Shown here piece by piece: positions 1,300 to 16,937 of a stretch of DNA of 20,000 bases. Under the pieces are notes generated by a model. That model was not told the DNA's origin, made no database searches, and was given only the letters and a program-made list of their open reading frames with translations. The first letter of the stretch is position 1, and each line of letters opens with the position of its first letter. This DNA comes from an uncultured virus (IMG/VR IMGVR_UViG_3300042564_002870) (lineage: Duplodnaviria > Heunggongvirae > Uroviricota > Caudoviricetes), in the IMG/VR virus record IMGVR_UViG_3300042564_002870. One strand, given 5' to 3'. The translations under genes and the position numbers were made by a program.

Positions 1300-1520
1300 T
1301 GGATCATTACAGCAACAAATTAGCATCCTTGAAATGGGCCGTGTCGGAGGTTCAAATCCTTCCTCTCCCACCACGGATACTGTTAGTTTATGACAACCTT
1401 TCTTGTATAAGATATTAATAGGCTTATATGGCGAGACAATTGGGTATAAACTAGCGTGCAGTATCTTTGATGGGAGAGTAGCTCAGGTAGTAGAGCAGGT
1501 TACGCAAAAAGTTGATCCAG
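1300..1520 (+). ncRNA. circularly permuted tRNA-Phe(GAA)-like gene inside a stem-CAGCAA cassette (copy 1)
   Basis: The 3' half (TTGAAAT..T-arm..CTCTCCC-A-CCA, 1329-1373) precedes the 5' half (GGGAGAG-TAGCTCAGGTAGTAGAGC.., 1472-1503); closed by TGGATCA/TGATCCA. Confidence 0.8.
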
Positions 1521-3519: not shown

Positions 3520-3579
3520 AGGATCAGTTCCGCAAACAAGCGAAAATTTCAATTTTGGTTTGAAAAACAAATGATCCTG
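3520..3579 (+). ncRNA. stem-CAGCAA cassette copy 3
   Basis: AGGATCA-GTTCCGCAA..TGATCCT-G; inner TTCAA-TTTTGGT-TTGAA hairpin. Confidence 0.65.
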
Positions 3580-3587
3580 CTTATAAT

Positions 3588-3669
3588 GCTCGCGTACGCC
3601 CCACCGCTACGAACGGTGCCAAAGCTAACTGGAGGTAAGATGTAGGTTCGAGTCCTATCGCGAGTACCA
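3588..3669 (+). tRNA. atypical D-armless tRNA-Arg(ACG)
   Basis: GCTCGCG/CGCGAGT, CACCG-CTACGAA-CGGTG, T-arm GTAGG-TTCGAGT-CCTAT, CCA; only 7 nt between acceptor and anticodon arm. Confidence 0.75.
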
Positions 3670-4046: not shown

Positions 4047-4118
4047 GTAAAAGAATTGTTGACATTTTGAAAATATTGTGGGCAAAGTCAAAAGAGGTAT
4101 TGGTTCATATTAAATAAA

Positions 4119-4198
4119 AGGATCAGTTCAGTAAACAATCTGGATAAAAACAAATCTTCAAAATTTGAATAAGTGGTTCAATTCCACAATTGATCCTG
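4119..4198 (+). ncRNA. stem-CAGCAA cassette copy 4 with TCA anticodon arm and T-arm
   Basis: AGGATCAGTT/AATTGATCCT; CAAAT-CTTCAAA-ATTTG; GTGG-TTCAATT-CCAC. Confidence 0.7.
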
Positions 4199-4208
4199 TA
4201 AAGACCCA

Positions 4209-4273
4209 AGGATGGGTTCAGCAAAAAAGAAAGCAACAAACATTTAATTTGTAAACGCTCAAAAACCATCCTG
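4209..4273 (+). ncRNA. stem-CAGCAA cassette copy 5
   Basis: AGGATGG-GTTCAGCAA..CCATCCT-G (compensatory stem changes); inner ACAAA-CATTTAA-TTTGT. Confidence 0.65.
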
Positions 4274-4374: not shown

Positions 4375-4480
4375 GTTTCTGTAATTCAGCGGTAGAAGGG
4401 CACCCCAGCTATGATGGTAAGATACACCGAAAAAGAACTGGCTCTGCGGGACGTGGGTTCGAATCCCACCAGAAACCCCA
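4375..4480 (+). tRNA. 106-nt tRNA-like gene with expanded anticodon arm, identity undetermined
   Basis: GTTTCTG/CAGAAAC, D-arm TTC-AGCGGTA-GAA, T-arm GTGGG-TTCGAAT-CCCAC, CCA; about 30 extra nt centrally. Confidence 0.7.
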
Positions 4481-5729: not shown

Positions 5730-5836
5730 AGTTTGTGTACAGCAATCAATTAAAATCATAGCATAGGTCGTAAGCTTCGGCAACAAGATCACAACAGTTT
5801 TCGATTTTCTGTCCAAAAAAGTAGACACACAAACTG
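5730..5836 (+). ncRNA. stem-CAGCAA cassette copy 6
   Basis: AGTTTGTGT-ACAGCAA..ACACAAACT-G; inner AAAATC/GATTTT and cTTCGg hairpin. Confidence 0.6.
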
Positions 5837-5841
5837 TTAAT

Positions 5842-5917
5842 GATCCCGTAGCTCAGATGGTTAGAGCATGCTCTCTAAAAGCAAATGTCGTGGGTTCGAG
5901 TCCCACTGGGGTCACCA
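5842..5917 (+). tRNA. amber suppressor-type tRNA (anticodon CTA)
   Basis: GATCCCG/TGGGGTC, canonical D and T arms, 4-bp stem TGCT-CTCTAAA-AGCA, CCA. Confidence 0.8.
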
Positions 5918-9088: not shown

Positions 9089-9099
9089 TAAACTTTCAG

Positions 9100-9128
9100 T
9101 TGACAAATACCCCGAATCAGTTTATATT
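9100..9128 (+). promoter_or_regulatory. sigma70-type early promoter
   Basis: TTGACA-N17-TATATT, CGAATCAGT in spacer. Confidence 0.88.
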
Positions 9129-9155
9129 AATACTATAACCGAATGAGGAACTGAA

Positions 9156-12378: not shown

Positions 12379-12381
12379 TGG

Positions 12382-12410
12382 TTGACATATTCGGATGGAT
12401 AGTATATACT
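12382..12410 (+). promoter_or_regulatory. sigma70-type early promoter
   Basis: TTGACA-N17-TATACT followed by GATTC. Confidence 0.85.
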
Positions 12411-12440
12411 GATTCTATAAGGTGAATAAAGGAACCGAAA

Positions 12441-15569: not shown

Positions 15570-15764
15570 ATGACAGAGGTTGAATTAAAAGAAGCCAATA
15601 GATACTTCTGGATTGTGAAAGGTCATCTTATCCCGGACTCTTGGCGCGAAAAAGAAATCATGAGTGTATATAATGGTTACTTTGATCGTATCTGGGGTAA
15701 TCACGAAAATTGTGTACATGAATATGATTTTGAAGAAGCATATTTAAAAAGATGTAATAAATAA
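15570..15764 (+). CDS. hypothetical protein
   Basis: ORF; start uncertain (15540 or 15570); overlapped by a 20-aa ORF at 15521-15583 that has a GGAGG RBS. Confidence 0.7.
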   Translation: MTEVELKEANRYFWIVKGHLIPDSWREKEIMSVYNGYFDRIWGNHENCVHEYDFEEAYLKRCNK

Positions 15765-15774
15765 CTATGTAGTG

Positions 15775-16100
15775 ATGATATTCACTGAACACGTTCTGGA
15801 CTCGGGGGCGGTACCCGAATCGTCCACCACAGATACCGGTCAGTTTATGGAACCCTTGGATGTATGAAGCATTGCTATCATATGGCGAGATAAGTTTATG
15901 TAAACAAGACGATCGGTATCTTTGCTGGGCGATAAATAGGATCGACAGGCGCACTAGGCAGGATGGAGCTACCCGGCGAAAGCTCGGTTAACGCAATAAA
16001 ATAAGAAATGCAAATGAAAATTTCGCACCTAAGGCTTTTGCTCTAGCAGCATAAGTACTGTGGGTTGGCAACTTACCTAGAAACAGAAAAGTTGCATCAC
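15775..16100 (+). ncRNA. ssrA: two-piece circularly permuted tmRNA (alphaproteobacterial type)
   Basis: Acceptor piece ends ATCGTCC-A-CCA at 15829; coding piece starts GGGCGAT-AAATAGGATCGAC at 15927 (G3:U70); tag ANENFAPKAFALAA* at 16010-16054; outer ends approximate. Confidence 0.93.
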
Positions 16101-16127
16101 ACATCACACAACATAGAAAGGTCTATT

Positions 16128-16937
16128 ATGACATATGTAAATTTTCCAAAACTCCCAAACCAACAAGTAAATATTCTCCCGCATACAACACTTACTGTTT
16201 CAAAACCAACTGTATCACTTGCTGATGCGTTCAAGCCGAAACGCGCGGGTACAAAAACCTCTCATATTATCTTTGTTCTAGACGATTCTGGCTCAATGCA
16301 GTCCTGTCGTGCTGCAACGATCTCTGGCTATAACGAGTACCTACAAGCACAAAAGAAAGACGCAGTGGAGACGGGGATTCCAACCTTTGTTTCCCTTTAT
16401 AAATTTGACGGTTCGTCTGTCAACAGTGTTTTCAGTCGTGTTACTGTAGATGAAGTTCAAGATCTTAATGAAAAAACATATGATCCACAAGGTACCACAA
16501 ACCTTTATGATGCCATTGGTGGTGTCATGATGCAGATCAATAGTCAACTTTCTGCAAACAAGAAAGCAGATCGTGACTCTATCATTATCACTATCTTGAC
16601 TGATGGTGCAGAAAATGCTTCCAGAACTTTCAATAATACTACAGTCAAACAAATGGTGGAAAAAGCAGAAGGTAAAAACTGGGGCTTTATGTTCCTCGGT
16701 GCAAATATCAATGCATTTGCTGCAGGTTCTGCACTTGGTTTCAATTCCAATAATACTATGCAATATGATACCGCTTCAATGGGTAACACAATGCGTTCTG
16801 CATCTGCTATGACGTCTCGTATGAAATCAGCTTATGCGACTGGTGAATATAGTGGCCACGACGGCGTGGCAGCTCTTTATGTGGCAACTGCTTTTACTGA
16901 CCAAGAACGAACTGCTTCAGTATCAAAAGATGAATAA
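16128..16937 (+). CDS. von Willebrand factor A domain protein
   Basis: MIDAS motif FVLDDSGSM, GTTNLYDAIG, ILTDGAENAS, FMFLGAN. Confidence 0.92.
   Translation: MTYVNFPKLPNQQVNILPHTTLTVSKPTVSLADAFKPKRAGTKTSHIIFVLDDSGSMQSCRAATISGYNEYLQAQKKDAVETGIPTFVSLYKFDGSSVNSVFSRVTVDEVQDLNEKTYDPQGTTNLYDAIGGVMMQINSQLSANKKADRDSIIITILTDGAENASRTFNNTTVKQMVEKAEGKNWGFMFLGANINAFAAGSALGFNSNNTMQYDTASMGNTMRSASAMTSRMKSAYATGEYSGHDGVAALYVATAFTDQERTASVSKDE

Follow-up and report, generated by a model that had tools for sequence, protein, structure and literature searches.

Permuted tRNA genes, in which the 3' part of a tRNA lies upstream of its 5' part, have been described from red and green algae and from Thermofilum (cited in the available text of 10.1101/312249 and PMC3673656), and one has been reported in the algal virus BpV1 (PMC3673656). 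YrlA RNAs, a class of tRNA look-alikes, occur in bacteria and phages and have near the 5' end a GNCGAAN0-1G motif, the presumed Ro60 site (available portions of PMC4201824). RNase P cleaves the Mycobacterium smegmatis YrlA, whose acceptor stem has 7 bp, in vitro, and in vivo this RNA is present as two halves to which CCA has been added (same source). Here we describe a locus at positions 1300-1519 of a 20,000-nucleotide (nt) stretch of DNA from an uncultured virus (IMG/VR IMGVR_UViG_3300042564_002870), hereafter the window, that resembles both systems and also the two-piece transfer-messenger RNA (tmRNA; RF01849, RF04321). The locus is a tRNA-Phe(GAA) in rotated order, with nt 29-76 including CCA first, a 98-nt hairpin second and nt 1-28 last, the whole being enclosed by a 7-bp closing stem. 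It shares with algal and archaeal permuted tRNAs the upstream 3' part, the paired outer ends, a spacer between the acceptor ends that RNase P and 3' processing could remove, and a rejoined product that is a canonical tRNA. With YrlA it has in common the look of a tRNA, ends that pair at the position of the anticodon stem, and the order T arm, acceptor stem, D arm (PMC4201824 and 10.1101/312249, in their accessible parts). Like a two-piece tmRNA, it consists of a T-arm and CCA-ended acceptor piece, an intervening segment and a 5' acceptor strand.

The elements of the locus, all on the plus strand of the window, can be read directly from the sequence. The 5' strand of the closing stem (P0), TGGATCA at 1300-1306, pairs with TGATCCA at 1513-1519. 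Next to it stand TTACAGCAACAAAT and the linker TAGCA (1307-1325), a stretch that is invariant among the relatives described below, partly since it was used as a search key. The anticodon hairpin (1326-1340), as delimited by a parse of 26 units, comprises TCC (nt 29-31), the loop TTGAAAT at 1329-1335 with the anticodon GAA at 1331-1333, GGG (nt 39-41) and CC (nt 42-43), these last two forming GGGCC at 1336-1340. The variable loop GTGTC (1341-1345), the T arm GGAGG-TTCAAAT-CCTTC (1346-1362), the acceptor 3' strand CTCTCCC (1363-1369), the discriminator A (1370) and CCA (1371-1373) complete the first part. After the 98-nt intervening hairpin (1374-1471) come the acceptor 5' strand GGGAGAG (1472-1478), TA, the D arm GCTC-AGGTAGTA-GAGC (1481-1496), A26 at 1497 and G27 G28 at 1498-1499. 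The linker TTAC and a conserved A-rich strand, GCAAAAAGT, then lead back to P0 (1500-1512). The circularly permuted tRNA-Phe with encoded CCA that the initial annotation had proposed was thus recovered with each of its listed elements in place, including acceptor strands that pair in all seven positions.

Read as linear sequence, 1300-1520 yielded no tRNA, neither among the 17 ARAGORN tRNAs nor among the 18 Rfam tRNA hits of the window. When the slice 1300-1519 was closed into a circle, ARAGORN called a 76-nt tRNA-Phe(GAA). A control in which 1454 slices of 220 nt from the same genome were circularised was uninformative: of 16 calls that wrapped the joint, 13 were ordinary tRNAs clipped by a few bases at the edge of a slice, two had very long "introns" and one was the rotated tRNA-Phe locus itself. 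Folding of the unit gave -66.3 kcal/mol (z -3.43), a value that 0 of 200 shuffled sequences equalled. An identical 218-nt unit is present in three other records (L041, L042 and L193), and the rotated order is therefore not an assembly artefact.

The anticodon assigned in the circular ARAGORN call shifted with the placement of the joint (Phe, Ser or Arg), so that a joint within the anticodon loop was not secure. Inspection of the pairing revealed that TCC at 1326-1328 pairs with GGG at 1336-1338 (nt 29-31 with 39-41), and that GG at 1498-1499 pairs with CC at 1339-1340 (nt 27-28 with 42-43). Because of these pairings the break falls between nt 28 and 29 and not in the loop. The 7-nt anticodon loop, which had been described as open, is closed by TCC/GGG, and the discontinuity lies inside the anticodon stem at 28|29, where the module that contains the closing stem branches off. 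Rejoined at this point, the anticodon stem has four Watson-Crick pairs and one G-U pair; the weak stem noted earlier arose because the joint had been misplaced. Joining of the halves in silico, suggested at the outset and made here at 28|29, gave the same 76-nt tRNA-Phe(GAA) in ARAGORN.

The locus was first read as a single oddity. It is in fact one member of a large family, and what the members share is the flanking module, not the tRNA. When the unit was compared by blast with related records, its flanks alone recurred, about 3.9 kb upstream in the same genome. The contig from which the window was taken (G000) carries at that site, genome c45135-45010 on the minus strand and about 3.9 kb upstream of window position 1, a second full rotated tRNA with the same flanks and a different body. 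Its acceptor stem is CAGGGGT/ACCCCTG, followed by A, CCA and an 8-nt spacer, its anticodon loop is ATTCGGA (anticodon TCG), and it scores 132.8 bits with the covariance model described below. The boundaries of the family are GGATCA-TTnCAGCAAC... on the 5' side and ...GCAAAAAGT-TGATCC on the 3' side. A pattern of the 5' flank matched 12 viral loci, 10 of which have the 3' flank 102-210 nt downstream and enclose a rotated tRNA, the other two having a short insert. In metagenomes the same pattern matched at least 122 loci; many of these lack a 3' flank, have G at the free position and resemble protein-coding DNA, and the remainder added further units.

A fixed cloverleaf template was used to parse 26 distinct units, which carry eight different anticodons. 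In every one, the 5' part stops two bases past position 26, the 3' part opens with three bases that pair with the three after the 7-nt loop, and the two bases beyond those form pairs with the final two bases of the 5' part. All 26 have U33 and a purine at position 37, and CCA is encoded in 19 of them. Joined at 28|29 without their spacers, 26 of 26 were called as full-length tRNAs by ARAGORN, compared with 0 of 26 as written. Positions 27-28/42-43 and 29-31/39-41 are paired in every unit, the latter with several pair types, in a parse that takes the best-pairing register and so favours pairing; the cross-unit control is free of that bias, and there the strands of different units pair in 0 of 362 and in 0.5% of 422 comparisons. 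The acceptor stem is fully paired in 81% of units and in 0.8% of cross-unit comparisons. Furthermore, a covariance model built from 22 other, short-spacer units, with the rotated tRNA-Phe locus excluded, gave 94.3 bits at 1298-1521 (rough E value 8e-24). The covariance-model search suggested by the initial annotation thus returned both this locus and its relatives.

The 53 strongest matches of this model include 52 distinct rows. Across these rows 92.4% of cells pair, compared with 66.4% after shuffling (0 of 500 shuffles reach the observed value) and with 34-51% when the partner strands were slid. Among these rows 21 of 25 base pairs change on both sides. P0 is 98.3% paired, with 5 of 7 pairs changing on both sides; the lower anticodon stem (29-31/39-41) is 95.3% paired, with 3 of 3 pairs covarying; the T stem is 99.2% paired, and the acceptor stem 92.7%, with 7 of 7 pairs covarying. 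The D stem is only 62% paired in this alignment, for which misaligned columns are suspected. In the parsed units the base at position 55 of the T loop also follows the D loop: G55 is found in 19 of 26 (with AG and no GG in the D loop in 16, and GG in 3), and U55 in the remaining seven, every one with D-loop GG. This crude count suggests tertiary covariation. The rotated tRNA-Phe locus has U55, and its sole D-loop GG sits early in the loop. The seven parsed Phe-type units keep GAA and A37 and vary at positions 32 and 38; their acceptor stems (GGGAGAG/CTCTCCC or GGGGAAG/CTTCCCC) and also their T stems change by compensation. Two further relatives carry the anticodon GAT. In G006, a complete relative of 282,855 bp, the counterpart of our locus has the same acceptor stem, the loop CCGATAA, the anticodon GAT and C33.

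These data bear on a simple explanation of the rotated order, namely that two copies of a tRNA-Phe once stood in tandem, that the upstream one shed its front part and the downstream one its rear part, and that the locus is what is left, without function. Such a duplication with two subsequent deletions would yield this gene order with matching acceptor strands, and a normal tRNA-Phe, which the initial annotation had suggested looking for, is present elsewhere in G000. Every helix of the family nevertheless shows compensating changes, units with unrelated bodies, 26 of 26 parsed, all have the break at 28|29, the flanks are conserved, and the sequence is identical in three other records, with no free decay of helices among the relatives. 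In addition, the best identity of the rotated bodies to any ordinary tRNA of G000 or G006 is 66-74%, which rules out a recent origin from the phage's own tRNAs. We regard a dead remnant as highly improbable.

The module itself consists of P0 together with two conserved single strands, UUACAGCAACAAAU and GCAAAAAGU, that leave the anticodon stem at 28|29. Its motifs are (N)UU(N)CAGCAA(C/A), directly after the 5' strand of P0, and an A-rich run, typically GCAAAAAG(U), before the 3' strand; UUNCAGCAAC and GCAAAAAG are among its sequence elements. The closing stem occurs as GGATCA/TGATCC, GGATGA/TCATCC, GGATGG/CCATCC, GGTTCG/CGAACC, GGAACA/TGTTCC and GTTTGTGT/ACACAAAC, with an outer seventh pair that is T-A, A-T or G-C, and diverged copies of the module retain (C/A)GCAA or CAGTAA. 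What the module carries ranges from a full rotated tRNA, through an acceptor-less tRNA in normal order, anticodon and T-arm hairpins, or an anticodon-type hairpin alone, to a small unrelated hairpin or almost nothing. These observations demonstrate that the module, and not the tRNA, is the shared part of the family.

The 80-kb contig contains at least seven copies of the module. Besides the two full rotated tRNAs, a copy at 2402-2513 of the window (plus strand, 56.2 bits) has flanks that have diverged, and its rotated tRNA body is degenerate, lacking both CCA and the anticodon hairpin. The copy at 3520-3577 (plus strand, 22.1 bits, fold z -3.44) has a small hairpin as its only cargo. Two more, also on the plus strand, lie at 4117-4199 (25.2 bits), with hairpins like an anticodon arm and a T arm, and at 4207-4272 (22.1 bits), with an anticodon-like hairpin. 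Another copy is found at genome c68312-68262 on the minus strand of G000. A likely eighth copy of 105 nt, detected with a regular expression that required the motif, bears unrelated cargo at 5730-5834, between a tRNA-Thr and a tRNA with the anticodon CTA. It has a 9-bp closing stem, AGTTTGTGT/ACACAAACT, whose 5' strand is followed by ACAGCAAT and whose 3' strand is preceded by an A-rich run; the fold of this element is not significant (z -1.03). In G006, nine copies score above 50 bits and five further full-length hits score 22-30 bits, all on the tRNA strand.

Directly after the cargo-poor module at 3520-3577 we observed a tRNA-like sequence at 3588-3668 that was not called by the programs. 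It has acceptor strands GCTCGCG/CGCGAGT, A, CCA and a normal T arm, and an odd, long 5' region. A pair of a module and an odd tRNA-like sequence like that at 3520-3668 recurs in two other records (L032 and L034).

Among cellular genomes, taken as one per species of bacteria and archaea, 34 exact matches to the 5' flank (with G excluded at the free position) were found and none had the 3' flank; these matches look like coding or chance occurrences. A blastn search with 1200-1620 gave no match among cultured phages. The short Phe unit of L178 matched 53 records of cultured phages, which in no case reached the flanks or 80% coverage of the query; the best of these matches, in Erwinia phage Kaldavass, falls under an annotated tRNA-Lys and may be part of a tRNA array. 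A 48-nt cargo-free module (L200 type) gave chance matches in coding DNA only. Rfam searches of the flanks revealed no known ribozyme or other family at E values up to 5 (12 loci) or up to 10 (the unit of the window). A CRISPR-DR64 match to the flanks at E 0.88 was taken as chance.

Since the topology is that of YrlA, we considered whether the locus is an ordinary YrlA-type Y RNA, whose closing stem would bind the host Ro60 (Rsr) and whose tRNA-like part would be an effector module. The terminal stem at the position of the anticodon stem, the T arm, the acceptor stem and the D arm are all found, and in L178, a Phe relative with a short spacer, the tRNA-like core can be aligned to the Rfam YrlA model with 25.1 bits. 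The same model (RF02553) gave no match at 1260-1560 at E values up to 10. None of the five phage records examined reached its gathering cut-off of 69 bits, the best scoring 35.8 bits over the core only, and similar sub-threshold matches appeared in 13 of 14 control genomes. The GNCGAA motif is absent from 1300-1325 (TGGATCA-TTACAGCAACAAAT-TAGCA), which contains no CGAA. A Ro60 (TROVE) gene within about 4 kb on the same strand, the neighbour sought as a mark of YrlA, was likewise lacking: PF05731 was found in two control genomes and in none of the five phage records, which include G006 (CheckV 100% complete) and G000, a contig rated 40% complete. YrlA, according to the available text of 10.1101/312249, has neither an anticodon loop nor a free CCA, and the rotated tRNA-Phe RNA has both. 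An ordinary YrlA is, in our estimation, improbable. The phage unit differs from YrlA in having another stem module, no GNCGAAN0-1G motif, no Ro60 gene in the records examined and sub-threshold Rfam scores, together with a real anticodon in an intact loop of 7 nt and an encoded CCA followed by a removable spacer. Moreover, unlike YrlA, its module also bears cargo other than tRNA and occurs in many copies inside tRNA arrays.

The spacer ties the locus to tmRNA. The phage has a two-piece (permuted) tmRNA at 15714-16098 on the plus strand (Rfam alpha_tmRNA 104.7 bits, tmRNA_permuted 95.3 bits; tag ANENFAPKAFALAA), and alignment identified its intervening segment (15830-15926, plus strand, about 14 kb downstream) as a homologue of 1374-1471. 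The two are identical at 70 of 98 positions, with an alignment score of 32 compared with -9.3 +/- 4.6 and a maximum of 8 in 1000 shuffles. Their borders also agree, being CCA-C(A/G)GATAC on the 5' side and GTATCTTTG(A/C)T-GGG on the 3' side, and the basal stem shows a compensating change, being GATACTG/CAGTATC in the tRNA-Phe spacer and GATACCG/CGGTATC in the tmRNA. The spacer at 1374-1471 folds at -24.8 kcal/mol (z -2.62), and that of the tmRNA is likewise a long hairpin. The comparison with a two-piece tmRNA made in the initial annotation therefore extends to homology of the intervening segments. The rotated tRNA-Phe is not itself a tmRNA: ARAGORN made no tmRNA call at 1300-1520, and tmRNA_permuted scored 13 bits against a cut-off of 47. 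It differs from tmRNA in lacking a tag frame and pseudoknots, in having a full D arm and anticodon arm, and in its third acceptor pair, which is G3-C70 in place of the G3-U70 of tmRNA.

Searches with spacer patterns identified nine relevant viral loci, of which five hold a tmRNA copy identical to that of the window over a stretch of about 275 nt, two hold a diverged tmRNA from a second lineage, and two hold the rotated unit; five other matches were unrelated. Some family members combine one and the same tRNA body with spacers of different length, short or long (Ile in L215 and L220, Phe in L178 and L241), the spacer after CCA ranges from 3 nt to about 135 nt, and six units have a 4-5-nt loop capping the acceptor stem and no encoded CCA. 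The position of the spacer is therefore fixed, and its presence as an insert is optional. Three metagenome records (L151, L162 and L213) have rotated Arg-type units with a spacer of about 135 nt that is unlike the tmRNA-type hairpin. These three share the interior …CCTCTGA…GGTACGGGAG…GGCCTCTC… and may represent a second kind of passenger in the same slot.

With moderate confidence, we interpret 1300-1519 as a putative small structured-RNA gene in which a rotated tRNA-Phe borne on the conserved stem module would form a two-piece, CCA-ended tRNA mimic. A full cloverleaf fold is available to the RNA, in which the 5' end pairs with the 3' end to form the 7-bp P0 and the acceptor stem is capped by the 98-nt hairpin located after the encoded CCA. 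As in two-piece tmRNA and in the M. smegmatis YrlA, RNase P would cut before G1472 and the hairpin would be trimmed back to the CCA at 1373; we infer such an opening of the acceptor end because CCA is already encoded and the spacer is of the tmRNA's own type. The result would be two RNA pieces, approximately 1300-1373 and 1472-1519, that would stay associated through the acceptor stem, P0 and the tertiary core. Phenylalanyl-tRNA synthetase (PheRS) reads the anticodon. Since the product would have a free CCA end and a GAA anticodon, it could probably be charged by PheRS, and the retention of anticodon and CCA in the family fits recognition by this enzyme. The side arm at 28|29 would make ordinary decoding unlikely. 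The conserved module would then be the putative binding site of a partner and the tRNA part its variable cargo, and the mimic could act as a decoy or adaptor in the contest between phage and host over tRNAs.

A different fate of the same RNA has to be weighed, in which the locus encodes a true permuted pre-tRNA: RNase P and 3' trimming would open the acceptor end, the module would be cut away at nt 28 and 29, and a phage RNA ligase would seal the nick in the duplex to give a decoding tRNA-Phe(GAA). The success of 28|29 joining in all 26 units once the spacer is removed, the CCA encoded in 19 of them, and the GAA kept by the Phe-type units despite compensating changes in the acceptor and T stems are all consistent with this. 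So is the gene content of the relatives. The search for an RNA ligase that had been suggested at the outset found Rnl1-type enzymes in G006 (90 bits) and in G003 (82 bits), a record of this phage's own lineage, and Rnl2-type enzymes in G003 (97 bits) and G006 (96 and 92 bits); a nucleotidyltransferase of the CCA-adding type is encoded in G000 and G006. Sealing of nicks in duplex RNA is reported for T4 Rnl2, and a 28|29 nick, which would lie inside a duplex, would be the kind of substrate that enzymes of this type are said to seal. To our knowledge, the natural substrate of T4 Rnl2 is not known.

Several findings speak against such a pathway. Neither tRNA_int_endo nor RtcB was found in any of the five records, leaving no endonuclease among them for the two cuts. 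By inspection, made without a dedicated search program, the bulge-helix-bulge is absent at the 26 parsed junctions, where the nearest helix is one of 2-3 bp, GC(A) with (U)GC, and there are no 3-nt bulges around a 4-bp helix. The linkers between motif and junction vary, from 2-5 nt on one side and from about 1-4 nt on the other, so that a ruler measuring from the module does not fit. A contiguous, unpermuted "intron" form of the module was found in 0 of 105 matches to the 3' flank, and the same module bears cargo that can never become a tRNA. Furthermore, the rotated units duplicate ordinary tRNAs, and G55, which 19 of 26 units have in the T loop, is uncommon in working tRNAs. In algae and archaea permuted tRNAs depend on a bulge-helix-bulge, a splicing endonuclease and a ligase, with a circular intermediate; the phage unit lacks the motif, and no such endonuclease was found in the records searched. 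It also differs in belonging to a bacterial virus, in a break that is always at 28|29, and in flanks that form one conserved module across tRNA identities. We consider a sealed, decoding tRNA rather unlikely. That such genes would be matured in bacteria by a protein-only pathway supplied by the phage, with the nick at 28|29 sealed by an Rnl2-type (or Rnl1-type) ligase, is a shade less likely again. If this is true, permuted tRNA genes and the ligase-dependent joining of a tRNA would both be described for the first time in a bacterial virus, and the nick-sealing RNA ligases of phages would have a natural substrate.

As an observation apart, G006:200873-205201 (L315:873-5201) encodes an RNA ligase with a PHA02142 OB fold, an endonuclease VII and a T4 Rnl1-type ligase, with a YhhQ/Vut_1-type transporter nearby.

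We prefer the mimic on a scaffold because of the redundancy of the rotated units, the Ser or Leu anticodons on bodies with a short variable arm (8 of 26 units), the G55 T loops and the cargo other than tRNA. The normal tRNA-Phe(GAA) of G000, the ordinary tRNAs for all 20 amino acids that G006 has beside its rotated units, and the GAT anticodon with C33 in the G006 counterpart of our locus were counted against a needed decoder. This preference has evidence on its other side. The exact break at 28|29 and the perfect 5-bp anticodon stem in 26 of 26 units would suit a splicing substrate, of which a retained CCA and a GAA kept in seven Phe-type units would also be expected, and related records encode RNA ligases of both the Rnl1 and the Rnl2 type. 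A block to ribosomal decoding by the side arm at 28|29 is a proposal and not a result. In addition, the 52-row alignment was fitted to the covariance model and so favours pairing, and the conservation of the flanks is overstated because the module partly served as the search key; the diverged copies that the model found give the truer picture of what is retained.

In the literature, judged partly from titles and the openings of abstracts, we found no description of the module or of permuted tRNAs of bacteriophages; a 2026 preprint on three families of tRNA mimics concerns, in its available part, other RNAs. Relative to mimics with the YrlA topology, the new features are a conserved module with variable tRNA-derived cargo and an intact anticodon arm, as well as an encoded CCA with a tmRNA-type spacer and a fixed break at 28|29. 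The units belong to a widespread family, so far undescribed, of genes for tRNA look-alikes that lie within the tRNA arrays of phages. Should this family prove real, these arrays hold a second, unannotated layer of genes, with many copies per genome, that displays parts of tRNAs (whole rotated tRNAs, anticodon arms and T arms) on one stem module and that standard tRNA finders and Rfam overlook in every member. It links YrlA-type mimics, permuted tRNA genes and two-piece tmRNA, the last through the common spacer. The locus offers a concrete substrate for asking whether bacteria or phages open, charge or re-join rotated tRNAs. The module, in turn, points to a putative partner that reads it, which is relevant to the ways in which large phages protect or draw on the tRNA pool of the host.

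The window corresponds to the minus strand of G000:C1:22508-42507. G000 is a single viral contig of 80,190 bp with 37% G+C and a CheckV completeness of 40%, and its source is a large phage of a bacterium. ARAGORN found 35 ordinary tRNAs and one permuted tmRNA in it, all on a single strand; 17 of these tRNAs and the tmRNA lie inside the window. Among the ordinary tRNAs of G000 ARAGORN made no call for tRNA-Trp, the sole amino acid missing from the set of the contig. The genes of the window include those for a phage tail collar domain protein, PstS, heme oxygenase, ferritin, a DAHP/KDO8P-synthase family protein, an Orn/Arg decarboxylase and a cyanophage-type outer-membrane protein. Next after the tmRNA, at 16065-16937, a protein of 290 amino acids with weak VWA matches is encoded. 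The tRNA with the anticodon CTA at 5842-5917 is of the amber suppressor type (ARAGORN label Pyl), and G006 has one too. At 4375-4477, a 103-nt tRNA match (Rfam 41.3 bits) has a long insert in its anticodon arm; ARAGORN called it in intron mode only, as His(atg) with a 28-nt intron, and the call looks doubtful.

The ORF next to the unit, at 1586-1891, gave no relatives beyond two identical contigs when used as a query. A promoter-like element, GTTGACAT...(17 nt)...TATAyT, is repeated with conserved surroundings ahead of small ORFs, copies of the consensus element lying at 1531-1584, 1888-1925, 2626-2679, 2936-2973, 9099-9152 and 12381-12434; one copy begins 13 nt past the rotated tRNA-Phe unit. 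About 75 nt upstream of the unit, a promoter-like site on the plus strand at 1196-1224 (CTGACA, 17 nt, TATCAT), which matches the consensus at 10 of 12 positions, is a possible start for the transcript of the rotated unit.

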